A stretch of 64,000 nt of DNA from a virus: the IMG/VR virus record IMGVR_UViG_3300032893_000021, positions 25,287 to 89,286 of that record, one strand, 5' to 3'. Below, piece by piece: positions 40,232 through 61,149 of the stretch; position 1 is the first letter of the stretch, and each line of letters begins with the position of its first letter. The translations under genes were made by a program, and so were the position numbers. The notes below the pieces were generated by a model that had not been told where the DNA came from, made no database searches, and worked only from the letters and a program-made list of their open reading frames with translations.

Positions 40232-41277
40232 GGGCGCGCCCCCGCGGCGCCGTCTCTGGCCACCCCGAGCATGTCAAGGAGCGCGGCGGTGACGCTTTCG
40301 AGCATGTAACGGCGCTTCAGGGCCATCTCGTCGGGCGGCTCCACTGCCGCATCGGCCTCGTCGAGCGCGTCGAGGACCGCATCGGTGATGTACAGCGTCA
40401 GCGCGGCGCGCCCTGTGCCGCGCTTGACCGTGGGGCCCTTGCCGTTCTGCGCGATCCGCAGTCCACGCGCCGCCCTCATCGCCTGCGCGTGGCGGGTCAG
40501 CGTCCGGAGCACCGCGTCGGCCACGAGTTCGCGCCTCGCCTCATGATCAATCGCGGGCCTCCGCTCGCTCTCCAGCGGCGCGGGGGCGGACGCCTGCGCC
40601 TCGATCTGGAAGACGAGGTCGATGGGCTCGTTCGCCGTCCGCGGGATCTCGCGCCCCGTCAGCATGTCGTGCAGCCGCCGCCCGGCCTCGGTCAGCGGGT
40701 CGGGCCACTTCGCCGCAACTGTGGGGTCCAGCGGCGCGGCGGGGGCGGGCGTGTAGACCTGACCGTCCGGCGTGGTGACACGCGCGACAGGCGGCTCGTA
40801 CAGTCCGGCCCCCGGCGTCGGGCAGGGCGTCATGCCGGGTCCGATGCGCTGGCCGCAGTCCACGCACATGATGTCGTGGTCGAGCGGAGACGCCTCGGGC
40901 CGCAGCATCCCGTCGTCGTTGTAGTCGTCGAGGAACGGCGCGGGCTTGATGATGTCCGGCGCGTTGTGCTCCGTCATCGTGATGCCGAGCCTCGCCGACG
41001 ACTCTCGGACGGACGGGACCCGCTCCATCCGGTGACCCTCGCACCCGTCGCCCACCCAATGTTCGCGGTCCAGCGGCGCGGCGGGGGCGGCTGCGGCGTC
41101 GAGGACTCTGCTCGGCTCGGCAACCCTACGTGCGAGCAGGCCGCGGGCGAGGTCGTCGAGCGCCCGCTCGCTGATGACCGGCTCGCCGTGCGTCGCGGCG
41201 CCGACCAGTTCCAGCGCGTTCGCCCGGAGCGTCTCGCGGATGACCTCCCTCATCTCGTCAACGGGGTCGGGGGTCAT
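40228..41277 (-). CDS. modular hypothetical protein with repeated PAAPLD linkers
   Basis: GGAGG SD; three A/PAAPL[D/E] linkers encoded by near-identical DNA. Confidence 0.6.
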   Translation of the reverse strand: MTPDPVDEMREVIRETLRANALELVGAATHGEPVISERALDDLARGLLARRVAEPSRVLDAAAAPAAPLDREHWVGDGCEGHRMERVPSVRESSARLGITMTEHNAPDIIKPAPFLDDYNDDGMLRPEASPLDHDIMCVDCGQRIGPGMTPCPTPGAGLYEPPVARVTTPDGQVYTPAPAAPLDPTVAAKWPDPLTEAGRRLHDMLTGREIPRTANEPIDLVFQIEAQASAPAPLESERRPAIDHEARRELVADAVLRTLTRHAQAMRAARGLRIAQNGKGPTVKRGTGRAALTLYITDAVLDALDEADAAVEPPDEMALKRRYMLESVTAALLDMLGVARDGAAGARP

Positions 41278-41467
41278 GTGGGCACCTCCAGCGCGGCGAG
41301 CCAGCGGAGCCGCTGCGCTCGTAGGGGTGGTTGACGTGATACTGCGGGTGCCGCGGGTTCGGGCAGCCCTGCTCGCTGTGGCACGACTCTGGGGAGGGGC
41401 AGCAGGCGCCCGGCGGCTGCGGCCTCGCGGGCGCCATGCGCGGAGACCCGTCCTTGCGGGCGCTCAT
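41258..41467 (-). CDS. small Cys/His-rich hypothetical protein
   Basis: ATG immediately after the upstream stop; CCP..CH..CP..H. Confidence 0.35.
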   Translation of the reverse strand: MSARKDGSPRMAPARPQPPGACCPSPESCHSEQGCPNPRHPQYHVNHPYERSGSAGSPRWRCPHDPRPR

Positions 41468-41773
41468 CTAGTCCCTCCCGAACCCGCGCGGCAGGTCCAC
41501 GCCCTCGACCTCGTCGAGGAGGGCCTCGATGTCGCCGAAGACGTCCACGTCCACGTCGTCCAGGCCGAGGTTGGTGACCTCCTCCAGCTTCTCCTCGGTG
41601 GCCGTGCCGCGCGCGACGTCGGCCAGGTTGTCGAGCCAGTCCTGGTACTCGGACTGGAGGTCCCTCAGGGTGTCGAACGCGGCCTCGATGTCGCTCCTGG
41701 CCGTGTCGATCGCCGAGCGCGCCTCGGCTGCGGCCGCCGCCCAGCGGTCCGGCCTGCTCAGTGTCCTCGCCAT
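41468..41773 (-). CDS. acidic helical hypothetical protein
   Basis: AAGGAGG SD; LQSEYQDWLDNL...DLPRGFGRD. Confidence 0.7.
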   Translation of the reverse strand: MARTLSRPDRWAAAAAEARSAIDTARSDIEAAFDTLRDLQSEYQDWLDNLADVARGTATEEKLEEVTNLGLDDVDVDVFGDIEALLDEVEGVDLPRGFGRD

Positions 41774-41821
41774 CTCGTCTGCCCTCCTTGGCGGCCCGGC
41801 CTCCCGGGCCCCGCTGGCGAC

Positions 41822-41883
41822 ACCATACCAGGTCGGCAGGACGTTGTAAAGCCCTTTACAATCCCCGGCATGACTGCTATGGT
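41822..41883. promoter_or_regulatory. back-to-back sigma70-type promoter pair
   Basis: ACCATA-N17-TGTAAA-GCCC-TTTACA-N17-TATGGT at the second divergence point. Confidence 0.85.
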
Positions 41884-41929
41884 GGCCCCAGCGCCGGGGC
41901 GGACCCGGCAGCAAAGGAGGCTAGGGCTG

Positions 41930-43087
41930 ATGGGAGTCAAGAAGGTCAAGGAGGCGCTGCCCGCTGGCGCCACCCCGGAGACAAGGCCGGACCTGTTCGG
42001 GACGCGCGGCCAGTTCGCACGCGACCAGGACGGCGGGATGATCACGTTCGTCAACGACGCCGACAAGCCGGAGTACGCGACCCCCGAGGCGTCCGGCGTC
42101 GAGCGCGGGTTCTACGTCGCGGACCGCGGGCTGCCCTGGCACGTGGCTCTCTCTCGCACGCTCGGGACGCGCGAGCTGATGGAGGGGCGCGACTCCCTGC
42201 TGGGGGTCGACGAGGCCTGGGAGGCGCTGGGCGGCATCGAGATCGCCAAGGTCCCGGTCCTCACCCCGGACGGGGTCCCCGTCCCCGGCTGGGTCGCGAC
42301 CGTGGACGCCAAGACGGGCGCCCCCACGGGCGGCGTCGTCTCGCCGCGGTACAACGTGTTCCAGGAGCGGGACCTGATCCAGCTGGCAGTCGACCTGGTC
42401 GACGCGGGCGCGATCATCGAGACGGGCGCACACATGGCCGGGACCTCCAGGTTCTGGGTCAGCCTCGAGCTCCCCTCGCTGGAGGTCAGCGTCCCGGGCG
42501 ACGAGTCCGGCCTCCAGTCGTACCTGCTCCTCCGGAGCGGCCATGACGGCGGCATGAAGGCGCAGGCGTACATCACGCAGGTCCGCTCGGTCTGCGCGAA
42601 CACCGAGAACCTGGCGATCGACCGATCGAAGGCGGTCTGGATGCTCTCGCACCGCTCGCGGCTCGAGGGCCACATCGAGGAGGCGCGCCGCTCGCTCGGC
42701 ATCGCGTTCAAGCAGTCCCAGGAGGTCAAGGCGCTGACGACCATCCTCGCCCGCAAGCGGCTCGTCGACGACCAGGTCCGGGAGATCCTCGAGAAGGCCG
42801 TCTGGCCGGTCTCCGGCGACTCGGGCAAGGTCAGCCGCCACGCCGCCGCGGCGTACGAGGACTACCTCGAGAGCCCGACCCTGGACGGCATCCGGGGGAC
42901 GGCCTGGGGCGCGTACAACGCGGTCACGGAGTACCTCGACCACGTCCTCGATTACAAGGACGCGGCCCGGCGGACCGAGGGGCGCCGCCAGCCAGCCGAC
43001 GAGGTCAGGGCCGAGTACCTGATCGACGGCCGGGGGGCCGAGGTGAAGAACCGGGCGCTGCGCGCCCTGGTCACGGCTGCCAAGTAG
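41930..43087 (+). CDS. DUF932 (phage/plasmid-like TIGR03299-type) protein
   Basis: PWH, VSPRYNVFQ, ETGA, YLLLRSGHDG, RSVCANT, GTAWGAYNAVTEYLDH. Confidence 0.85.
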   Translation: MGVKKVKEALPAGATPETRPDLFGTRGQFARDQDGGMITFVNDADKPEYATPEASGVERGFYVADRGLPWHVALSRTLGTRELMEGRDSLLGVDEAWEALGGIEIAKVPVLTPDGVPVPGWVATVDAKTGAPTGGVVSPRYNVFQERDLIQLAVDLVDAGAIIETGAHMAGTSRFWVSLELPSLEVSVPGDESGLQSYLLLRSGHDGGMKAQAYITQVRSVCANTENLAIDRSKAVWMLSHRSRLEGHIEEARRSLGIAFKQSQEVKALTTILARKRLVDDQVREILEKAVWPVSGDSGKVSRHAAAAYEDYLESPTLDGIRGTAWGAYNAVTEYLDHVLDYKDAARRTEGRRQPADEVRAEYLIDGRGAEVKNRALRALVTAAK

Positions 43088-47710: not shown

Positions 47711-48646
47711 GTGAGCCAGTACGACCCCGTGGAGGTGGCCACGGTCTACATCGCCATGTTCGCCGCCCGCCTCGACGACCACGCCTTCTGGCGCCCCACG
47801 CCGGACGGCGAGGCGGAGGGCCACTGGGAGCGGGCCCGGCGCCCGCTGACGCCCGAGGCGGCGCTCGGCGGCCTGCGCGGGGACAAGCCCGTCTCGTCCT
47901 ACATGGAGGACGCCGTCGGGGCGACCCACGTCGGAGCCGTGGACTTCGACACCGAGGACGGCTACGCGCGGGGCCTCGAGGTCGCTGGCGTGATGGCGCG
48001 CGCCGGGGCGTACCCGATGCTCGAGAGGTCGAGGCGCGGCTGCCATCTCTGGGTCGTCATCGACGACCAGGTGCCGGGGCAGGCCATGCGGCTCGCGCTG
48101 CGCTGGTGGACCGGTCAGGCGAACGCCCACTGGGCCCGTGACCCGAAGGTCGAGATCCTCCCGAAGCGGCTCGAGCAGCGCGGCCCGGACACGGTCGGCA
48201 GCCCGCTCCGCATGCCGATGATGCCGCACCCGGTGGCAGGGCGCCGCTGGCCCCTCCTGAGGGCCGACGGGACGCGCCTCGGCGAGTCCGTCTCGGCGAC
48301 CCTCCTCGCGGTCGACCAGACACCGGCCGGTCTCGTGCGCGAGGCCGCCGAGCGGGCCCCGCTGCCGCCGGACGAGTGCAGGATTCCCGCCTGGGCCAGG
48401 CCGGTGGCCCGCGAGCCCGGCGACTGCGTCCAGGTCCTCGAGGCCGCCGGGGTGGCCCGCGCGGTCCCGGGACGCGGCTGCCGATGCCCGCTCCACGACG
48501 ACCGGGTCGCGTCCCTCTCGATCGCCCGGGACGGCGAGCGCGTCTGGTGCAAGTCGCCGTCCTGCGTCGCCTACAACAACGGCCGCGGCCTGGGGGCCGA
48601 CCAGCTCGCCCGGGCGCTGGGCGAGCTGGCGGCGGCACCGGCATGA
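47711..48646 (+). CDS. AEP-superfamily primase with C-terminal Zn finger
   Basis: AVDFD, LERSRRGCHLW, VEILPK, GSPLRMP; CPLHDDRVASLSI...WCKSPSC. Confidence 0.8.
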   Translation: MSQYDPVEVATVYIAMFAARLDDHAFWRPTPDGEAEGHWERARRPLTPEAALGGLRGDKPVSSYMEDAVGATHVGAVDFDTEDGYARGLEVAGVMARAGAYPMLERSRRGCHLWVVIDDQVPGQAMRLALRWWTGQANAHWARDPKVEILPKRLEQRGPDTVGSPLRMPMMPHPVAGRRWPLLRADGTRLGESVSATLLAVDQTPAGLVREAAERAPLPPDECRIPAWARPVAREPGDCVQVLEAAGVARAVPGRGCRCPLHDDRVASLSIARDGERVWCKSPSCVAYNNGRGLGADQLARALGELAAAPA

Positions 48647-49617
48647 CCACCACGACGCTGGCGGCCGCCAACCCGGTCATCGCCTCGTCGGTCGCGTTCC
48701 GCGACATGCGGCGCGCGGACCTCGAGCGGCACTACGCCGCCGTCCCCTGGACGACGCCGCGGTTCTACCAGAGCCCGACGGTCCTGGCTGGCGGCGGCTC
48801 GCAGTACAGGGCGGCGTTCGTCGAGGGCTGCCTCGCGATCCTCAAGTGGAAGCAGTTCTACTCCCAGCTCGTGGCGTACGCCTTCCTCCCGCCCATGTCA
48901 CCGACCGGCGACGCCGCAGACGAGAGGCGGGCCCTCGCCGAGCTCCGGGCCCGCGGGTTCGGCGTCATGCTCACGGCCGAGGACGGGCGGCGCCTGGACG
49001 TGCCCGCGTCCGACCTCGAGCCGGTCCCGTGGAACACCGAGTACATCTACCGGGCGTCCCATCTGGCGAGGCTCGAGGGCGGCGACTGGGCGAAGCTCAG
49101 GACGTACCGCAACCGGGCCCACCGGGACGGCTACCGCTGCGAGGACTCGCCCGCGGCCTCCACCGGCAACGAGGACATCCTCCGCCTGACGAAGGACTGG
49201 GTGGCGTACCGCCGCAAGGGCGGCGCGATGACGGGCTACATCAGGGCCCTCGGCTGGTGGCCCGCGACGCGCGTCTTCCGGATGTACGACCGCGACGGGG
49301 GCCTGGCCGCGTTCTCCTACACCGAGGACCTCGGCCCGGCGGGCACCGTCATCACCGGGCGCCTCCGCGACTACGCGCGGACCCTCATCCACGACCCGAT
49401 GCAGCTGATCGCCCACCACGAGGCCCTATGGGAGCTCGAGAACCGCGGCGACCGGCTGATGAACCTGGGGGCGGCGGACCCCGTCGGGGGCCCCGGCCTC
49501 CGCTACCACAAGATCGCCCTCAACCCGGTGTCCACCCAGCAGATATACCGCCTCGCGGCGACCGGCGACCCCGGCGCGGAGCCCGGGGCCGGAGAGGAGC
49601 AGATGGCGCTATGGTGA
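48643..49617 (+). CDS. DUF2156 / MprF C-terminal-like GNAT-fold transferase
   Basis: EYIYRASHLARLEGGDWAKLRTYRNR and MNLG...GLRYHKIALNP match the DYxY..L..L.G....KR..N and N...GLR..K...P signatures of DUF2156. Confidence 0.7.
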   Translation: MTTTTLAAANPVIASSVAFRDMRRADLERHYAAVPWTTPRFYQSPTVLAGGGSQYRAAFVEGCLAILKWKQFYSQLVAYAFLPPMSPTGDAADERRALAELRARGFGVMLTAEDGRRLDVPASDLEPVPWNTEYIYRASHLARLEGGDWAKLRTYRNRAHRDGYRCEDSPAASTGNEDILRLTKDWVAYRRKGGAMTGYIRALGWWPATRVFRMYDRDGGLAAFSYTEDLGPAGTVITGRLRDYARTLIHDPMQLIAHHEALWELENRGDRLMNLGAADPVGGPGLRYHKIALNPVSTQQIYRLAATGDPGAEPGAGEEQMALW

Positions 49618-50150
49618 CGGTCAGGGTGTCCGGCGCCCAGTTGCGGCAGCGGTTCGACGGCTGCCAGCCGGACTTCGTGGCGAACGTCTGCCACGGCATG
49701 TGCTGCTGCCCGACCAAGGGACCGGCGATGCCGGTCATCGTCGTGGCGCGGATCGGGGCCGGGACCTGGAGGCGGACGCCGGGGGAGGACGACATCCGCA
49801 TCACGCGGGACGCCTTGTGCCCGCACTTCGTCGACTACCGGTGCGGCCTCCACGGCGACCCCGAGAAGCCGATGGGCTGCCTCGTCGCCCCGTTCTACAT
49901 CAGCGAGCACGGCCTCCTCGGGGTGCGCAACAGGTACAGGCGGTTCCCGTGCTTCAACGGCGGCGCTCGCCTGCCCGCCTACGTCGCCTTCAGGTCCGGG
50001 CTCGACAGCATCTTCGGGCGCGAGGCGGCCCAGGGGGTCGCCGACGCCGCTGAGGCCGGGGTGGGTATCTTCACGGCCGAGATTCCCGACGGGGCCTACG
50101 CCGCCCTGAAGGAGGTCCAGAGGATCGAGAGTTCCCCGTGGGTCAGATGA
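49611..50150 (+). CDS. YkgJ/CxxCxxCC-like Cys-cluster (Fe-S or Zn) protein
   Basis: C...CHGMCCC...CPHF..RCGLH...KP.GC..APF. Confidence 0.7.
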   Translation: MVTVRVSGAQLRQRFDGCQPDFVANVCHGMCCCPTKGPAMPVIVVARIGAGTWRRTPGEDDIRITRDALCPHFVDYRCGLHGDPEKPMGCLVAPFYISEHGLLGVRNRYRRFPCFNGGARLPAYVAFRSGLDSIFGREAAQGVADAAEAGVGIFTAEIPDGAYAALKEVQRIESSPWVR

Positions 50151-51064
50151 CGATGTCGCTCGAGTCGCCGGGCCGCGGGCCCTGGGTCTGCGAGCGCTGC
50201 GGGAAGTCCGTCCCCGCCGGTCCGGTCGTCCCGAGCCGCGCCGACAAGGGCCTCGCGCACGGCCAGTGCTACGCCTGCGACGACGCCACGCGCTGGCGCC
50301 GGGCCGAGCCGCTGACGCCGGTCGAGCAGTACGGCGAGTTCTACGTGAAGCGCGACGACGCCTACGAGCGCGCGGGCGTCCGGGGCGGCAAGGTCAGGAC
50401 CTGCTGGCGGCTCGCCCAGGGCGCGGTCGGGCTCGTCACGGCCGGGAGCAGGAGCAGCCCGCAAGTCAACATCGTCGCCCACATCGCCCGGGAGCTCGGA
50501 GTCCCCTGCAGGGTCCATACCCCGCAGGGCGAGCTGTCCCCCGAGGTCGCGGACGCGGCCGCCTGCGGCGCCGAGGTCGTCCAGCACCCGGCCGGGTACA
50601 ACAGCGTCATCACGGCGCGGGCCCGGGACGACGCGGCGTCCCTCGGCTGGACCCTGATCCCGTTCGGGATGGAATGCGAGGAGGCGGTCCGGGCGACGGC
50701 GTCCCAGGCCGACCTGCCGCCCGGCGTCCGTCGGGTGATCGTCCCGGTCGGGAGCGGCATGACGCTGGCGGGCATCCTGACCGGGCTGGCGCGCCATGCC
50801 AGCAGGACGCCGGTGGTGGGGGTCTCGGTCGGGGCCGACCCGACGGCCCGGCTCCAGCGCTGGGCGCCCGACTACCCCGGGCTCGAGATCGTCCCGCCCT
50901 CGTCCGACTACCACGCCCCGGCGCCGTCGCGCGTCTCGATCGGGGGCGCCGACCTCGTCCTCGACCCGCACTACGAGGCCAAGGCGGCCGCCTGGCTCGG
51001 GCCGCGCCTGGAACCGGGCGACCTCCTATGGGTGGTCGGCATCCGGAGGACGGCCGAGGGATGA
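50147..51064 (+). CDS. fold-type-II PLP-dependent enzyme (ACC deaminase/D-cysteine desulfhydrase-like)
   Basis: LTPVE, YVKRDD...GGKVR, VPVGSGMTLAGI, LDPHYEAK. Confidence 0.85.
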   Translation: MTMSLESPGRGPWVCERCGKSVPAGPVVPSRADKGLAHGQCYACDDATRWRRAEPLTPVEQYGEFYVKRDDAYERAGVRGGKVRTCWRLAQGAVGLVTAGSRSSPQVNIVAHIARELGVPCRVHTPQGELSPEVADAAACGAEVVQHPAGYNSVITARARDDAASLGWTLIPFGMECEEAVRATASQADLPPGVRRVIVPVGSGMTLAGILTGLARHASRTPVVGVSVGADPTARLQRWAPDYPGLEIVPPSSDYHAPAPSRVSIGGADLVLDPHYEAKAAAWLGPRLEPGDLLWVVGIRRTAEG

Positions 51065-52467
51065 CGGACAAGCCAGCGATCCCCGAGGGGCTCTCCGAGT
51101 CGCCGTTCGGGCTGCGCTACCACGTCCCCGAGGTCAGGGTCCTCGTCGAGATCATCGACCTCCGCCGGAAGTCGGGCGAGCTATGGGGCGAGATGACCGT
51201 CCGCTGCAACCTCGAGGGCGTCCGGGCCCAGCTCGACGGCAACCGCCTCAGGCAGGGGAACTTCAACTTCTCGTCCGTCTCGACCCGCAAGATATGGGCC
51301 AACGCCCTCGACGACATGACGGGCGAGGCCTTCCGCAAGACGGGCTGGCAGTGGGCCAACCTGATGGAGCGCATCTGCCAGTCCGTCCTCGACCACGAGC
51401 GCGAGGGGACCGTCCGCGGCGGGTTCATCACCGGCGAGAGGATCGCGGCCGGTGGGCGGCCCTGGGCGGCGTTCCCGATCGTTCCCCACGGCGAGATGGC
51501 CACGCTCTTCTCGCGCGGCGGGTCGGGGAAGACGCAGCTGGCGTACTGCCTGGCCTTCGGCATGGCACTCGGCAGGTCCGTCATCGAGGGGGTGCGGGTC
51601 GACCGCCCGTACCGGGTGGCCATCCTCGACTGGGAGACGAGCAAGGAGACGGCAGACGACATCTGGGGCATCATCTCCGAGACCACCGGGATCCGCGTCC
51701 CGGAGGGCATCTGGTACGAGCCGATGGACACGCCGCTCGAGCGCGGGCTCCCCAAGATCGCGACGGTCCTCGAGCGCTCCCGGGCGAACCTGGTCATCGT
51801 CGACTCGGTCGAGATGGCCCTGCTGTCCTCGTCCGAGGGGGCCGGGGACCCGGCCGACTCGATCACCCGCGTCTACCAGAGCCTCCGGCGGCTGGGGACC
51901 TGGGGCCTGATGATCGACCACGTGACGGGGGGCGACCTCAGGTCCCGGAAGGTCGCCCTCAAGGCGTACGGCAGCATCTTCCGGATGAACCTCGCCCGCC
52001 ACGCGATCGCGCTGCACGTCGGCCAGCGGTCGGGGGACACCTCCGAGGCGTACCTCGTCTGCGTCAAGTCGAACCTCTACCGCGACCGCTGGGCTATGCC
52101 GGGGACGCTCCTGCGGTCCGACGACGAGCTCTCGTGGTCCTTCGGCGACGCCGACTACGGCCTCTACGACCGCCTCCTGTCGTCCGGCGACACGACCGCC
52201 TCCGACGCCCCCGTCGGGGAGGGTGCGTACCAGGGTACGATGAGCGCCGGTGACAGGTTCCTCCGCGTCCTGCTCGACGCCGGTCCGGCCGGTCTGACCA
52301 TCGCCGGGATCTCAGAGCAGGCGCGCTACAAGTCGACGGCGTACATCCGCAAGGTCATGAATTCGTACGAGGGCATGGGGCTGGTCAGGGCCTACGACGG
52401 GCCAGGGCCGACCAGGGAGAAGCTCTGGACGCTGACGCCGGACGGCGTCTCGGCGATCGGCGAGTGA
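51061..52467 (+). CDS. RecA-fold/AAA replicative helicase with C-terminal winged helix
   Basis: Walker A GGSGKT, ILDWE, Walker B LVIVDS, IDH, YGS. Confidence 0.85.
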   Translation: MTDKPAIPEGLSESPFGLRYHVPEVRVLVEIIDLRRKSGELWGEMTVRCNLEGVRAQLDGNRLRQGNFNFSSVSTRKIWANALDDMTGEAFRKTGWQWANLMERICQSVLDHEREGTVRGGFITGERIAAGGRPWAAFPIVPHGEMATLFSRGGSGKTQLAYCLAFGMALGRSVIEGVRVDRPYRVAILDWETSKETADDIWGIISETTGIRVPEGIWYEPMDTPLERGLPKIATVLERSRANLVIVDSVEMALLSSSEGAGDPADSITRVYQSLRRLGTWGLMIDHVTGGDLRSRKVALKAYGSIFRMNLARHAIALHVGQRSGDTSEAYLVCVKSNLYRDRWAMPGTLLRSDDELSWSFGDADYGLYDRLLSSGDTTASDAPVGEGAYQGTMSAGDRFLRVLLDAGPAGLTIAGISEQARYKSTAYIRKVMNSYEGMGLVRAYDGPGPTREKLWTLTPDGVSAIGE

Positions 52468-52477
52468 CAACGATGGA

Positions 52478-52660
52478 GGGTACGCACCCGGGTACGAAGC
52501 GGATGATTCACGGGCTGGTTGAGGGGCCATCGTACCCATCGTACCCAGGGTACGTACCCCTCCTGCCCGCCGGGGCCCCGCCTCGTGCGCGCGTGCGCGA
52601 CGGGAGAGGGTATATACCCTGGCCACCCCCTTTCAGGGGGTGTGGCCCTGGGGTACGTTG
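52478..52660. repeat. cluster of GGGTAC/GTACCC repeats and palindromes; probable replication origin
   Basis: GGGTAC at 52478, 52490, 52651; GTACCC at 52532, 52541; palindromes GGGTACGTACCC (52548) and GGGTATATACCC (52608); directly after the helicase. Confidence 0.6.
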
Positions 52661-52792
52661 GGATCGAGTCGGCTCCTGGGGCTGTCGGCTGGCCCGACTC
52701 GGCTTGTTGCCGGGAACGGGAGCCGACTCGGCCCAGCAGGGCCGGTCGGCGCTCTGTCGAGGAGAGAGGTAGGATGGATCGGATGGGAGAGC

Positions 52793-54106
52793 ATGCCTGA
52801 CGAGTTCGACCCCCGGATGGGGATGGAGAAGGCCGAGGGCTTCGGGGTCGCCCGCAACCAGATCAGGGACCTCAACTACATGGCGAAGCGGGAGGCCGCC
52901 AGGCGGGCCGAGGAGGGCGCCGCCGCGAAGGCCGTGTTCGGCGAGCCGGAGACGTTCACCAGCCGGGCCGGGGCGATCGTCACCAGGTACGCCGCGCCGC
53001 CCTTCTCGGTCCTCGACACACGGCAGGGCTACTGGCAGGAGAGGCGCCGCAAGTGGCTCGCCCTCGGGATCAAGTCGGAGCTCGGCCGGGGCGAGGCCGG
53101 TGCCCTGAAGATCAGCAAGGCGGTGTCCGACACGGCCGGGCTCGACATCCACCCGTCGATGGCGCCCGGCTCGGCCCGGGCGTTCGGCGTCGACCTGATG
53201 AGGGGCGAGACGGACGGGCGGGACGCGGGCTACAACTACGCGGCCCACAAGCGCCGGGCGCCCGGGACCGGGGCGATCCCCATGACCGGGCTGGCGGGCG
53301 ACTGGAACAAGGACATGCGGGCCGGGCCCGAGGCCGACCCTACGATGCCGATGGACGGCGCGGACGAGGTGGAGGGCCCGTCGGCGCCGGGGACCAGCAT
53401 CTTCGACCCGGTCCTCTGCGAGCTCGCCTACCGCTGGTGGTGCCCGCCCGGCGGGGCTGTCCTCGACCCGTTCGCGGGCGGCTCGGTCCGCGGCGTGGTG
53501 GCCGCGATGCTGGGCCACCCGTACACGGGGATCGACCTGTCCCGGGCCCAGGTCGAGGCCAACCGCGAGCAGGCGGCCCAGATCGTCCCGCCCGGGCTGC
53601 CGATGCCGACCTGGATCGTGGGGGACAGCCACCTCGTCCTCGAGTCGCTCGGGGAGGACGAGTACGACGCGGTGTTCACGTGCCCGCCGTACTACGACCT
53701 CGAGGTCTACTCGGACGACCCGGCCGACCTCTCCAACCTCCCGACGTACGGCGGGTTCGCGGTCCGGTACCGGGAGATCCTCGAGAAGGCGGCGGCCCGC
53801 CTCCGGACCGGCCGGTTCGCGACCGTCGTCGTCTCCGAGGTCCGCGACAAGACGGGCGCCTACGTGGGGCTCGTCCCGGACACCATCCGGGCCCTCCAGC
53901 TCGCCGGGCTCAGGTACTACAACGAGGCTGTCCTCGTCAACGTGGCCGGGTCGCTGCCGCTGAGGGTCCAGGGCCAGTTCGAGGCCGGGCGCAAGCTCGG
54001 CCGGATGCACCAGAACGTCATCTCGGCCGTCAAGGGGGACGCCCCGCGCGGCTGGGACCACGCACGGGAGGAGCCGCCCGACCCGCAGATGGGCCTGGGG
54101 CTGTAG
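52793..54106 (+). CDS. DNA amino-methyltransferase (N6A/N4C-type) family protein
   Basis: PPFSVLD...W..R...W, SIFDPVLCE, VLDPFAGGSVRG (motif I), FTCPPYYDLEVYS (motif IV). Confidence 0.85.
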   Translation: MPDEFDPRMGMEKAEGFGVARNQIRDLNYMAKREAARRAEEGAAAKAVFGEPETFTSRAGAIVTRYAAPPFSVLDTRQGYWQERRRKWLALGIKSELGRGEAGALKISKAVSDTAGLDIHPSMAPGSARAFGVDLMRGETDGRDAGYNYAAHKRRAPGTGAIPMTGLAGDWNKDMRAGPEADPTMPMDGADEVEGPSAPGTSIFDPVLCELAYRWWCPPGGAVLDPFAGGSVRGVVAAMLGHPYTGIDLSRAQVEANREQAAQIVPPGLPMPTWIVGDSHLVLESLGEDEYDAVFTCPPYYDLEVYSDDPADLSNLPTYGGFAVRYREILEKAAARLRTGRFATVVVSEVRDKTGAYVGLVPDTIRALQLAGLRYYNEAVLVNVAGSLPLRVQGQFEAGRKLGRMHQNVISAVKGDAPRGWDHAREEPPDPQMGLGL

Positions 54107-54768: not shown

Positions 54769-54823
54769 CGGGGCGTGGGCCGGGGCCCCCGCCCGGGGGC
54801 CGGGCCCCGAGGAGGGCAGCGAG

Positions 54824-55123
54824 ATGATGGCGTACACCCCCGTGGACGGGGTCTTCGTCAGCAGGCCGCCCTGCGCCCGATGCGGCGCGGCGGCGCGCCT
54901 CCACATGCTGAGCCGCAGCGGCGAGCTCGGCCCCTGCCCGACCGCGTGGCGGCCCGGGACGGCGGCCGAGGCCGAGGCGGAGCTCCGGTCCGCCCTGGCC
55001 TCGGGCGACGAGGCCAGGGTCTTCGCGGCCCGCGGCAACCTCCAGCGCCTGACCGGGCGCTGCATCGAGTGCGGCCTGCCGCGCGCGGCCGGGGAGGCGT
55101 GCTCGTGCCCTCCGACGCGATGA
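54824..55123 (+). CDS. small Zn-finger hypothetical protein
   Basis: GAGGAGG SD; CARC...H..C, CIEC. Confidence 0.55.
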   Translation: MMAYTPVDGVFVSRPPCARCGAAARLHMLSRSGELGPCPTAWRPGTAAEAEAELRSALASGDEARVFAARGNLQRLTGRCIECGLPRAAGEACSCPPTR

Positions 55124-55341
55124 CGGCCTACCTCGACGAGCACCCCGAGTACCGCCTCTGCGACGAGTGCCGCCACGCCGCGGACGCCCATCTCCTGGCA
55201 TGGGACTACATGCCGGGCAGCCCGGCGCGGGCCTACGTGTTCGAGCACGCGACCTGCTGGGCGGAGGACATCTGCCCCGAGTGCGACCCCGAGGCGCACG
55301 CGGCCGCGCTGGCCCTCGCCCCGGCGCCCCCGCTGGCGTAG
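55120..55341 (+). CDS. small Zn-binding hypothetical protein
   Basis: ATGA overlap; CDEC..H, CPEC. Confidence 0.55.
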   Translation: MTAYLDEHPEYRLCDECRHAADAHLLAWDYMPGSPARAYVFEHATCWAEDICPECDPEAHAAALALAPAPPLA

Positions 55342-59782: not shown

Positions 59783-60277
59783 GTGCCGAAGCGTATTCAA
59801 AGGCAACGCACGAAGGGCTGGAGGCTTCCGGCGAATACCGTGATCGTCTCTCGACCGTCGCCGTGGGGCAACCCGTTCACGTGGGAGGGCGACCGGGCCG
59901 TCTGGTTCGCCCTCGCCGTCGGGGAGCGCGCCGACGAGGCGGGCCGCCGCGCGATGGCGGTCACGATGTTCCGCTGGTGGATCGCGGGGGCGCGGGCGGA
60001 GGACTTCCCGATCTCCGTCACGTGGCCGGAGCCGCGGGTCCCGGGGATGCCCAAGTCGGAGGTCGAGTTCAGCGACGGGACCCGGCGGCCGATCGCCGAC
60101 CTCGTCGCCGGTCTGGGGCTCGTGATCGCGCTCAAGGACCCGCTGGTCATCCCCCAGCGCCCCGACCTCGCGCCCCTCCGCGGCCGCGACCTCGCGTGCT
60201 GGTGCCCGCTCGACGCGCCGTGCCACGCCGACGTGCTGATCGAGTTGGCGAACGAGGACGGGAGGCAGGAAGGCTGA
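59783..60277 (+). CDS. DUF4326 family protein
   Basis: PKRIQRQRTKGWRLP...VSRPSPWGNPF...LRGRDLACWCPLDAPCHADVL. Confidence 0.9.
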   Translation: MPKRIQRQRTKGWRLPANTVIVSRPSPWGNPFTWEGDRAVWFALAVGERADEAGRRAMAVTMFRWWIAGARAEDFPISVTWPEPRVPGMPKSEVEFSDGTRRPIADLVAGLGLVIALKDPLVIPQRPDLAPLRGRDLACWCPLDAPCHADVLIELANEDGRQEG

Positions 60278-61149
60278 TGGGCACCAAGATCGAGTGGGCC
60301 GACGAGGTGTGGAACCCCGTCACCGGGTGCTCGAAGGTGAGCCCGGGCTGCGCGCACTGCTACGCCGAGCGCCTCGCGACGACGCGGCTCGTCGGCAAGC
60401 CGGGGTACACGGGCCTCCCGTGGACGCCGGAGAACGCCGCCGTCAACGTCGTGCTCAGGCCAGACCGGCTCGACCAGCCGCTCCGCTGGCGCAAGCCCTC
60501 GCGCGTGTTCGTCAACTCGATGTCGGACCTGTTCCACGAACTCGTGCCGTACCAGTACCTCGACCGCGTGTTCCTCACGATGGCGCTCGCCAGCCACCAC
60601 CGGTTCCTCGTGCTCACGAAGCGGCCGGAGCGGATGCGCGGCTACCTCTCCGACCCGGCCACGCTCGGGCGCCTGATGCTCCGGCTGGCCGAGGCGGCCC
60701 GGATGACCGGCATGGAGATGCGGTCGGAGTTCGCCGACGACGGGCTCGACGGCGTCCGCCTCCGGAACGTCTGGCTCGGCACGTCGGTCGAGAACCAGCA
60801 CTGGGCGGACGTCCGGCTCCCCCCGCTCCTCGACACCCCGGCGGCCGTCCGGTTCCTCTCGGTCGAGCCGCTGCTCGGGCCGATCGAGTTCTCGGACGCG
60901 ACCAACGCGCCGGACCTCCGGGAGCGGCTGGGCAGGCCAGCGCTGGAGGGGATCGACTGGATCATCGTCGGCGGCGAGTCCGGGCCGGGGCGCCGCGAGA
61001 TGGACCCGGCGTGGCTCGCGTCGATCGCCGCGCAGGCCGACGCCGCCGGGGTCGCGCTGTTCGTCAAGCAGGACTCGGGGCCGCGCTCCGGCCTCCGGGG
61101 CCGCATCCCGGACGCCCTCTGGGCGAGGAAGGAGTACCCCCGTGCCTAA
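60277..61149 (+). CDS. DUF5131 (phage Gp37/Gp68) family protein
   Basis: TKIEW...WNPVTGCSKVSPGCAHCYAE, FVNSMSDLFH, LTKRPE, SVEPLLGP, WIIVGGESG, FVKQ. Confidence 0.92.
   Translation: MGTKIEWADEVWNPVTGCSKVSPGCAHCYAERLATTRLVGKPGYTGLPWTPENAAVNVVLRPDRLDQPLRWRKPSRVFVNSMSDLFHELVPYQYLDRVFLTMALASHHRFLVLTKRPERMRGYLSDPATLGRLMLRLAEAARMTGMEMRSEFADDGLDGVRLRNVWLGTSVENQHWADVRLPPLLDTPAAVRFLSVEPLLGPIEFSDATNAPDLRERLGRPALEGIDWIIVGGESGPGRREMDPAWLASIAAQADAAGVALFVKQDSGPRSGLRGRIPDALWARKEYPRA

Follow-up and report, generated by a model that had tools for sequence, protein, structure and literature searches.

The DNA analysed here, which as a whole stretch we call the window, is the final 64 kb of the 89,286-bp IMG/VR virus record IMGVR_UViG_3300032893_000021, which is about 82% complete by the CheckV estimate. 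The window has a GC content of about 73% and turns up in wetland metagenomes. Downstream of a RecE/RecT pair and ahead of the later genes, the + strand carries a chain in the order primase-like, DUF2156-like, Cys-cluster, pyridoxal 5'-phosphate (PLP) enzyme and helicase-like gene, followed after a gap by a gene of the DNA methyltransferase type (Table 1). The chain is coupled by stop/start overlaps of 4 nucleotides (ATGA or GTGA) at 48643, 49614, 50147 and 51061, the first being the ATGA that the primase-like stop shares with the DUF2156-like start. The DUF2156-like, Cys-cluster, PLP and methyltransferase genes, which are the subject of this analysis and may together serve DNA modification, all lie on the + strand with a coding-type GC content at third codon positions (0.96-0.98), a range that also holds for the primase-like and helicase-like genes of the chain. 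The 325-bp gap between the helicase-like and methyltransferase genes (52468-52792) shows no codon bias, and 7 of the 17 GGGTACG copies of the window are packed into 180 bp of it; this iteron cluster is probably an origin or operator. An earlier, sequence-only reading had placed coupled enzyme genes between primase-like and helicase-like genes and a methyltransferase after a probable origin. The coordinates, strand and overlaps of that chain are borne out, Pfam and PHROG agree with its domain calls, and the iteron-rich gap ahead of the methyltransferase gene makes an origin plausible. NCBIfam gave no match for the Cys-cluster, DUF2156-like or helicase-like proteins. Wetland-metagenome DNA runs compared with the sequence yielded short contig pieces of low depth and spurious joints at 85% likeness, which say nothing about arrangement or modification.

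Table 1 Features of the gene chain, the gap and the methyltransferase gene, in window coordinates
Feature	Position	Strand	Match or remark
Primase-like gene	47711-48646	+	Pfam AEP-TOTE, E 9.1e-6, 25.9 bits, just below the cut-off of 27; first gene of the chain
DUF2156-like gene	48643-49617	+	Pfam LPG_synthase_C (PF09924), E 7e-12
Tail QMALW of the DUF2156-like protein	49600-49614	+	Resembles a beta-clamp-binding motif
Cys-cluster gene	49611-50150	+	No Pfam match at E 0.01
Zinc-ribbon and PLP enzyme gene	50138 (or ATG 50147)-51064	+	Pfam PALP, E 6.6e-16
AAA_25 helicase-like gene	51061-52467	+	Pfam AAA_25, E 9.3e-10, 38.9 bits; separates the PLP gene from the methyltransferase gene
Iteron cluster GGGTACG/CGTACCC	52478-52657		Inside the non-coding gap; direct and inverted repeats, palindromes
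Methyltransferase-type gene	52793-54106	+	phrog_12517, 3.5e-94; phrog_498 'DNA methyltransferase', 1.3e-66
Tail QMGLGL of the methyltransferase	54086-54103	+	Resembles a beta-clamp-binding motif

The methyltransferase (437 residues) carries the S-adenosylmethionine (SAM) motif I as DPFAGGS at residue 225, alignable to that of 2zie, 8urk and CcrM and kept in relatives, and motif IV as TCPPYY at residue 297. Its residues 276-350 align with residues 26-100 of PDB 2zie (TCPPY against TSPPY) and its residues 202-268 with 2zie residues 218-283; because these blocks match in swapped order, the enzyme is a permuted relative of the beta-class amino-methyltransferases. Pfam N6_N4_Mtase reaches 22.7 bits on it, below the cut-off of 26.7, and covers profile positions 178-218 only. 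In N4/N6 amino-methyltransferases, motif IV canonically reads (D/N/S)PP(Y/F/W). The window enzyme departs from this pattern with a Cys at the usual D/N/S position, and (S/T)CPPY recurs in 79 of 80 related viral loci (SCPPY in 50, TCPPY in 29, SCLPY in 1), a degree of conservation that marks it as the family hallmark.

The PLP enzyme (308 residues) joins a zinc ribbon (CxxC at residues 18 and 44) to a fold-type-II PLP domain, which matches PALP at 58.9 bits (cut-off 35), phrog_3650 (1.6e-36) and phrog_7093 (1.2e-11). Its Schiff-base lysine, Lys85 in GGK, aligns with the GSK of ViI gp226 and the GNK of D-cysteine desulfhydrase and is retained in all 37 viral homologues that cover the position. 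By sequence, the nearest solved relatives are desulfhydrases and dehydratases, and the nearest characterised ones, found by BLASTP at 22-24% identity, are gp226 of Salmonella phage ViI (E 6e-8) and gp52 of Pseudomonas phage M6 (E 2e-4), the latter matching phrog_7093 at 2.2e-159. Lee et al. 2021 (PMC8989533) proved both to be decarboxylases whose substrates are amino acids that DNA thymine already carries, with K92 as the gp226 lysine. We infer that the window enzyme is a decarboxylase of the same kind, and not an eliminase or deaminase as the sequence-only reading had it for this fold type. We also considered that it might provide sulfur or ammonia as a D-cysteine desulfhydrase or a 1-aminocyclopropane-1-carboxylate deaminase, and rejected this, the matches being weak (E ~2e-4) and the tested phage relatives decarboxylating.

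With the window PLP enzyme as the query, we found 38 viral PLP loci (36-66% identity), and the same type of methyltransferase is present in 36 of them, a match being absent from the other two. The PLP domain lies between two methyltransferase pieces in 22 loci, splitting them near residues 265-270 in the stretch that separates motif I from motif IV; it is adjacent to the methyltransferase in 12, cut by the contig end in one, and on the opposite strand 4 kb away in one. Cultured phages show the same arrangements: gene 70 of Pseudanabaena phage Pam4 has the PLP domain inserted in the methyltransferase, in mycobacteriophage Vincenzo gp1 (ParB plus methyltransferase) adjoins the PLP protein gp2 (phrog_3650, 2.7e-106), and gp1 of Erythrobacter phage vB_EliS_R6L holds a 0.7-kb insert whose PLP similarity is weak.

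The Cys-cluster protein (179 residues) bears the motif C18-x8-C27-x3-C31-C32 together with C70, C78, H81, C90 and C114. Across 74 aligned sequences, C27, C31, C70, C78 and C114 are invariant, and conservation reaches 90% or more at C18, C32, H81 and C90; there are 263 representative relatives. The window protein itself matches no CxxCxxCC or DUF3109 profile at E 0.01. Among 74 stand-alone relatives, PF03692 is matched by 20 (best 3.5e-7) and DUF3109 by 11 (best 3e-9), and the Atlas feature and structure neighbours of the protein carry PF03692 or PF11307. By way of these relatives, it is placed as a divergent, distant member of the CxxCxxCC/DUF3109 superfamily that probably binds an iron-sulfur (Fe-S) cluster or zinc. 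Its confident AlphaFold2 (AF2) model (pLDDT, the predicted local distance difference test, 86) matched no solved fold at E <=1e-3 when compared with the PDB by Foldseek, and the best Z from VIA-align wide was 2.4; these negatives are no proof of a new fold.

The domain partners of the Cys-cluster protein are clearest in its 57 long relatives, those of more than 300 residues among the 150 best-scoring listed. Pfam finds N6_N4_Mtase in 44 of these (E <=1e-3), CxxCxxCC in 8, ParB_N in 6, PALP in 3 and Asp_Arg_Hydrox in 2, and local phmmer searches with the window proteins find methyltransferase pieces in 47, where the Cys domain is inserted at the site used by PLP (29), N-terminal (8), C-terminal (7) or truncated (3). 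The other ten comprise three Cys-PLP fusions (P0008, P0054 and P0132) and seven with neither partner; no viral locus was found for P0008. In viral contigs, a methyltransferase is fused or adjacent in 24 of 26 Cys loci. The Cys domain was also seen fused to Asp/Arg-hydroxylase-type proteins (two), XkdF-type proteases (two, one of them also with a D12-class methyltransferase) and a helix-turn-helix protein (one) (P0027, P0116, P0068, P0112 and P0090), which suggests that in the polyvalent proteins of phages it can pair with many kinds of domain.

Comparison across these loci shows that the methyltransferase, PLP and Cys domains work as a physical unit, and it is very likely indeed that the three window proteins are linked. 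The co-occurrence in gene neighbourhoods that the sequence-only reading named as a check on its whole set is seen for the PLP and Cys genes; outside this lineage it fails for DUF2156, which joins the set only in the window and in one metagenome contig, L003. There, PLP, DUF2156, Cys and methyltransferase follow one another as four consecutive overlapping genes, with no helicase gene between them. Identity to the window proteins is 64% for PLP (cut at the contig end), 64% for DUF2156, 52% for Cys and 49% for the methyltransferase, and the DUF2156 gene keeps its 4-nucleotide overlaps between the PLP and Cys genes despite the changed order. Both sequences also have a Cys-rich open reading frame (…ATCWAE(D/N)IC(P/R)ECDP…) downstream of the methyltransferase (window 54775-55341, L003 3545-4150), so that L003 is to be taken as a syntenic relative and not as an independent lineage. 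The zinc ribbon (CxxC…CxxC) heads the PLP enzyme in the window (50189-50278) and sits on the methyltransferase C-terminus in L003 (3232-3360), with 49% identity over 43 residues and a weak phrog_1581 match (E 5e-4); this small domain seems to move about within the module.

The DUF2156-like protein is soluble and has no flippase part, its 324 residues leaving no room for a membrane part, as the sequence-only reading had argued. LPG_synthase_C scores 45.4 bits over residues 77-236 (45.3 bits in the genome search) against a cut-off of 27.5. Its AF2 model, built from a three-row alignment, is of moderate confidence (pLDDT 70.8; predicted template modelling score 0.74). The top Foldseek match is 2HQY (E 2.4e-12, template modelling (TM) scores of 0.61/0.66 over 314 columns), followed by the C-domains of MprF/A-PGS/L-PGS, FemX and Sbb17/Sba18 (to E 1e-6, TM 0.5-0.6), in keeping with the likeness to aminoacyl-tRNA transferases noted earlier from the sequence. 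The model thus predicts a tandem-GNAT transferase that moves an aminoacyl group from aminoacyl-tRNA onto an amine; possibly it is another acyl group that is moved onto an amine, with acyl-CoA as the donor, as in other tandem GNATs. The protein is rare: only two close homologues (P0002 and P0003) were found among 5.8 billion clusters, there was no tblastn match in 50,697 phage records, related loci were absent from viral contigs (with a single-protein or an alignment query) and from genome contigs, and no fused longer forms were found, the last being weak evidence. The predicted complex of the Cys-cluster and DUF2156-like proteins scored 0.02 against a mark of 0.32, a result from which we conclude nothing about binding. 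One Atlas cluster, of 84 bacterial proteins, bears a label of PF03692 fused with PF09924; if the label holds, it would speak against DUF2156 being a mere passenger of the module.

The tails of the DUF2156-like protein and the methyltransferase (Table 1) are of one kind. A C-terminal Q[LMVI]x[LFMIV]x?[LFWM], drawn from what we take to be the beta-clamp-binding consensus, ends 2 of the 81 predicted proteins of the record, namely these two. QLEFVL and QLEMVL stand at the C-termini of the two DUF2156 homologues, and the L003 methyltransferase has DPQVSLW at the same place as the window tail; a clamp-like end occurs in none of 59 other loci of the methyltransferase family. Through its 4-nucleotide overlaps, the arrangement in L003 and this tail, the DUF2156-like protein is tied to the module, and we consider it likely to belong with the methyltransferase, PLP and Cys set.

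To our knowledge, every phage DNA hypermodification described so far has a modified nucleotide as its starting point, such as 5-hydroxymethyl-2'-deoxyuridine (5-hmdU), 5-hydroxymethyl-2'-deoxycytidine (5-hmdC) or 7-deazaguanine. The enzymes that make the substrates of ViI gp226 and M6 gp52 are missing here, and for most carriers of the PLP domain the methyltransferase is the sole partner, which leaves SAM or its aminocarboxypropyl end as the only amino-acid-bearing substrate in sight. A second hint comes from Croceibacter phage P2559S (L152 3386-5027), where gp66, an SCPPY member of the methyltransferase family, overlaps gp67 by 38 nucleotides; gp67 matches AdoMet_dc at 2.1e-19. In Li et al. 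2023 (PMC9992855), complementation establishes gp67 as a genuine SAM decarboxylase, and this polyamine paper makes no mention of the methyltransferase next to gp67. Two unrelated decarboxylases beside the same type of methyltransferase point to aminopropyl or aminocarboxypropyl transfer.

We tentatively propose, at somewhat less than even confidence, that the four proteins form a single module that modifies DNA bases after replication and has the (S/T)CPPY methyltransferase-fold enzyme as its hub, with the following mechanism in outline. The methyltransferase-fold enzyme would flip out a base and transfer to its exocyclic amine, instead of methyl alone, the 3-amino-3-carboxypropyl group of SAM or the aminopropyl group of decarboxylated SAM. 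The PLP decarboxylase would strip the carboxylate from the DNA-bound group, or from SAM, leaving a primary amine on a three-carbon arm. Such an amine is the acceptor type aminoacylated by enzymes of the Fem/DUF2156 fold; the soluble DUF2156-like transferase would then add to it an amino acid from aminoacyl-tRNA, as Sbb17/Sba18 and FemX do with other amines. The Cys-cluster protein, probably an Fe-S protein like the distantly similar FliB, would contribute an extra SAM-dependent step or support the complex. The clamp-like tails would hold the methyltransferase and the DUF2156-like protein on newly replicated DNA, which fits the operon site between primase-like and helicase-like genes. That the module puts a group more elaborate than methyl on freshly copied DNA is probable; the product that we favour, with nearly balanced chances, would be a base bearing an amino(carboxy)propyl group from SAM, to which an aminoacyl group is later added. 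In its boldest form, which we regard as unlikely, the proposal would amount to hypermodification without a modified nucleotide precursor, in which the amino-acid end of SAM is placed on an ordinary base of duplex DNA at the replication fork and extended in a tRNA-dependent manner into a peptide-like side chain, while an Fe-S protein resembling FliB would be one more partner that uses SAM.

Several observations weigh against this module and its chemistry. PF09924 matches none of the 114 viral records in which relatives of the PLP, Cys or methyltransferase gene occur (0/38, 0/26 and 0/50), so that the DUF2156 link rests on this virus and one related contig. PLP and Cys are mostly alternatives, Cys occurring in 0 of the 38 PLP loci and PLP in 0 of the 26 Cys loci. 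AdoMet_dc is present in 0 of 50 other family records, which makes P2559S a single case, and the window contains no tRNA gene. The clamp pattern was picked after the tails had been seen, and the link between the Cys-cluster protein and FliB would hold at the level of superfamily and motif only. Finally, 74 of the 80 loci of close methyltransferase relatives have no PLP or Cys gene within 6 kb, and the enzyme aligns with ordinary beta-class N4/N6 methylases.

The last two observations are the core of the alternative that survives best, plain methylation with helpers, which we consider possible though on balance improbable. Under this alternative, the enzyme is an ordinary N6-adenine or N4-cytosine methyltransferase, and the PLP, Cys and DUF2156 proteins never touch DNA; the helpers might adjust SAM/S-adenosylhomocysteine (SAH) or amino-acid pools, regulate the enzyme or counter host defence. 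Most family loci are partnerless, yet nearly all keep (S/T)CPPY, so the core may simply methylate; its PDB and Pfam matches are ordinary beta-class amino-methyltransferases, and Enterococcus phage records name its relatives 'DNA adenine methyltransferase'. However, a complete PLP domain with its invariant Lys sits in-frame inside the methyltransferase in the 22 loci described above, and the Cys domain occupies the same insertion site in 29 of the 57 long relatives, an arrangement that is hard to explain by a pool-adjusting role. Those PLP relatives that have been assayed and stand closest take amino acids bound to DNA as their substrates, and the shared type of tail on the DUF2156-like protein and the methyltransferase likewise speaks against helpers that stay away from DNA. 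The modification pathway suggested in the sequence-only reading stands in part: L003 and the PLP, Cys and methyltransferase fusions of other viruses favour one module, while the many partnerless relatives leave room for plain methylation.

The second alternative keeps DNA modification by the methyltransferase and PLP enzyme, with or without the Cys protein, and makes passengers of DUF2156 and Cys, the target of the DUF2156-like protein being a host lipid, a cell-wall precursor, a protein or a small molecule. The missing PF09924 in related viral records fits it, as does the finding that, beyond this virus, DUF2156 accompanies the set only in a related contig, and according to structure-entry titles the characterised family members act on lipids, peptidoglycan precursors and antibiotics. 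A mere passenger would hardly have been expected to keep its 4-nucleotide overlaps in L003 through reordering, to lack a membrane part or to end in a clamp-like tail in all three DUF2156 homologues, and we hold this alternative to be distinctly unlikely. A target other than DNA, with the module modifying RNA (tRNA or rRNA) or a replisome protein, is highly improbable: (D/N/S)PPY-type enzymes methylate RNA and protein glutamine too, and FliB, with its similar Cys motif, methylates protein, but the DNA-binding N-terminal domain of ParB is fused to some relatives (6 of 57; Vincenzo gp1), the closest solved or named methyltransferase relatives are DNA methylases, and the PLP relatives act on DNA.

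Among the papers that could be searched, none connects phage DNA methyltransferases with PLP enzymes, CxxCxxCC domains or DUF2156, and we found no published mention of the split four-gene form, the Cys insert, the Cys-PLP fusions, the DUF2156 tail or the P2559S pairing. New here are the split four-gene form, Cys as a second, equally frequent insert, and the Cys-PLP fusions, as are a DUF2156 member with a clamp-like tail and a proven SAM decarboxylase as partner in P2559S. If the proposed DNA-modification module is real, it would represent a new logic, in which DNA is decorated from an ordinary base by a methyltransferase fold with the amino-acid end of SAM and then with aminoacyl-tRNA. It would also bear on how phages escape restriction and other defences, explain why methylase fusions with PLP or Cys-cluster domains are so widespread (36/38 and 24/26 viral loci), and provide new enzymes for site-specific DNA labelling. 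The family is present in the cultured phages Pam4, vB_EliS_R6L, Vincenzo and P2559S.

Away from the chain, two further proteins were recorded in the window. One of 428 residues (59863-61149) matches DUF5131 (Gp37/Gp68 family) at E 2.5e-77 and has a weak NCBIfam match to 'radical SAM mobile pair protein A' (6.6e-13), far under the cut-off. The other, of 637 residues (41174-43087), has a C-terminal DUF932 (E 1.3e-38) and lies upstream of the recombination genes.

Among known systems, the thymidine hypermodification of ViI and M6 is alike in that a group resembling an amino acid is tailored on a DNA base after replication, as proposed for the window, in the homology of the PLP enzyme with gp226/gp52, and in the placement of the genes in a replication module. 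In contrast to ViI and M6, the record has no 5-hmdU kinase, aGPT-Pplase-type amino-acid:DNA transferase, deoxyuridine monophosphate hydroxymethylase or radical SAM isomerase: tblastn of M6 gp51, gp53, gp54 and gp58 and of ViI gp243 and gp247 against the 89-kb record found no homologue (best E 0.49-5.9), and the missing kinase and transferase, already remarked on in the sequence-only reading, are upheld by values of E >0.4 for all. The hub of the window system is a methyltransferase-fold enzyme, and the amino-acid donor would be SAM, aminoacyl-tRNA or both, in place of the free amino acid that ViI and M6 join to phosphorylated 5-hmdU. With the beta-class N4/N6 methyltransferases (2zie, TTHA0409; CcrM) the window enzyme has in common motif I DPFAGGS, the PPY loop, the local alignments and ParB-fused relatives; it differs from 2zie in its permuted motif order, with motif I ahead of motif IV, and from the class as a whole in the Cys of motif IV, in a family that hosts inserted PLP and Cys domains, and in a whole-protein Pfam score under the cut-off.

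The MprF C-domain, 2HQY, FemX and Sbb17/Sba18 have the tandem-GNAT fold in common with the DUF2156-like protein, whose LPG_synthase_C match is over the cut-off, and the entry titles of Sbb17/Sba18 (aminoacyl-tRNA-dependent peptide synthases) indicate that this fold can aminoacylate a soluble amine. Unlike the MprF/Fem group, the window protein has no membrane domain, is encoded in a phage replication operon, overlaps partners of a methyltransferase module and ends in a clamp-like tail. Wang et al. 2021 (PMC8598068) describe FliB, the flagellin lysine N-methylase, as dependent on SAM, which it converts to SAH and methylthioadenosine; it bears the motif CX4CX3CC and binds a [4Fe-4S] cluster. The window Cys protein resembles it in an N-terminal Cys motif ending in Cx3CC (C27-x3-C31-C32), but its first spacing is x8 and not x4, and its family is fused to DNA methyltransferases whereas FliB stands alone; the NCBIfam FliB model gave no significant match, the best being E 0.2 in a Cys relative. 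In spermidine synthase, a class-I methyltransferase fold aminopropylates an amine with decarboxylated SAM. P2559S may follow a like logic, since its SCPPY family member has beside it a SAM decarboxylase (AdoMetDC) of proven activity, whereas the window has a PLP enzyme in place of a pyruvoyl AdoMetDC, and its acceptor would be a DNA base.

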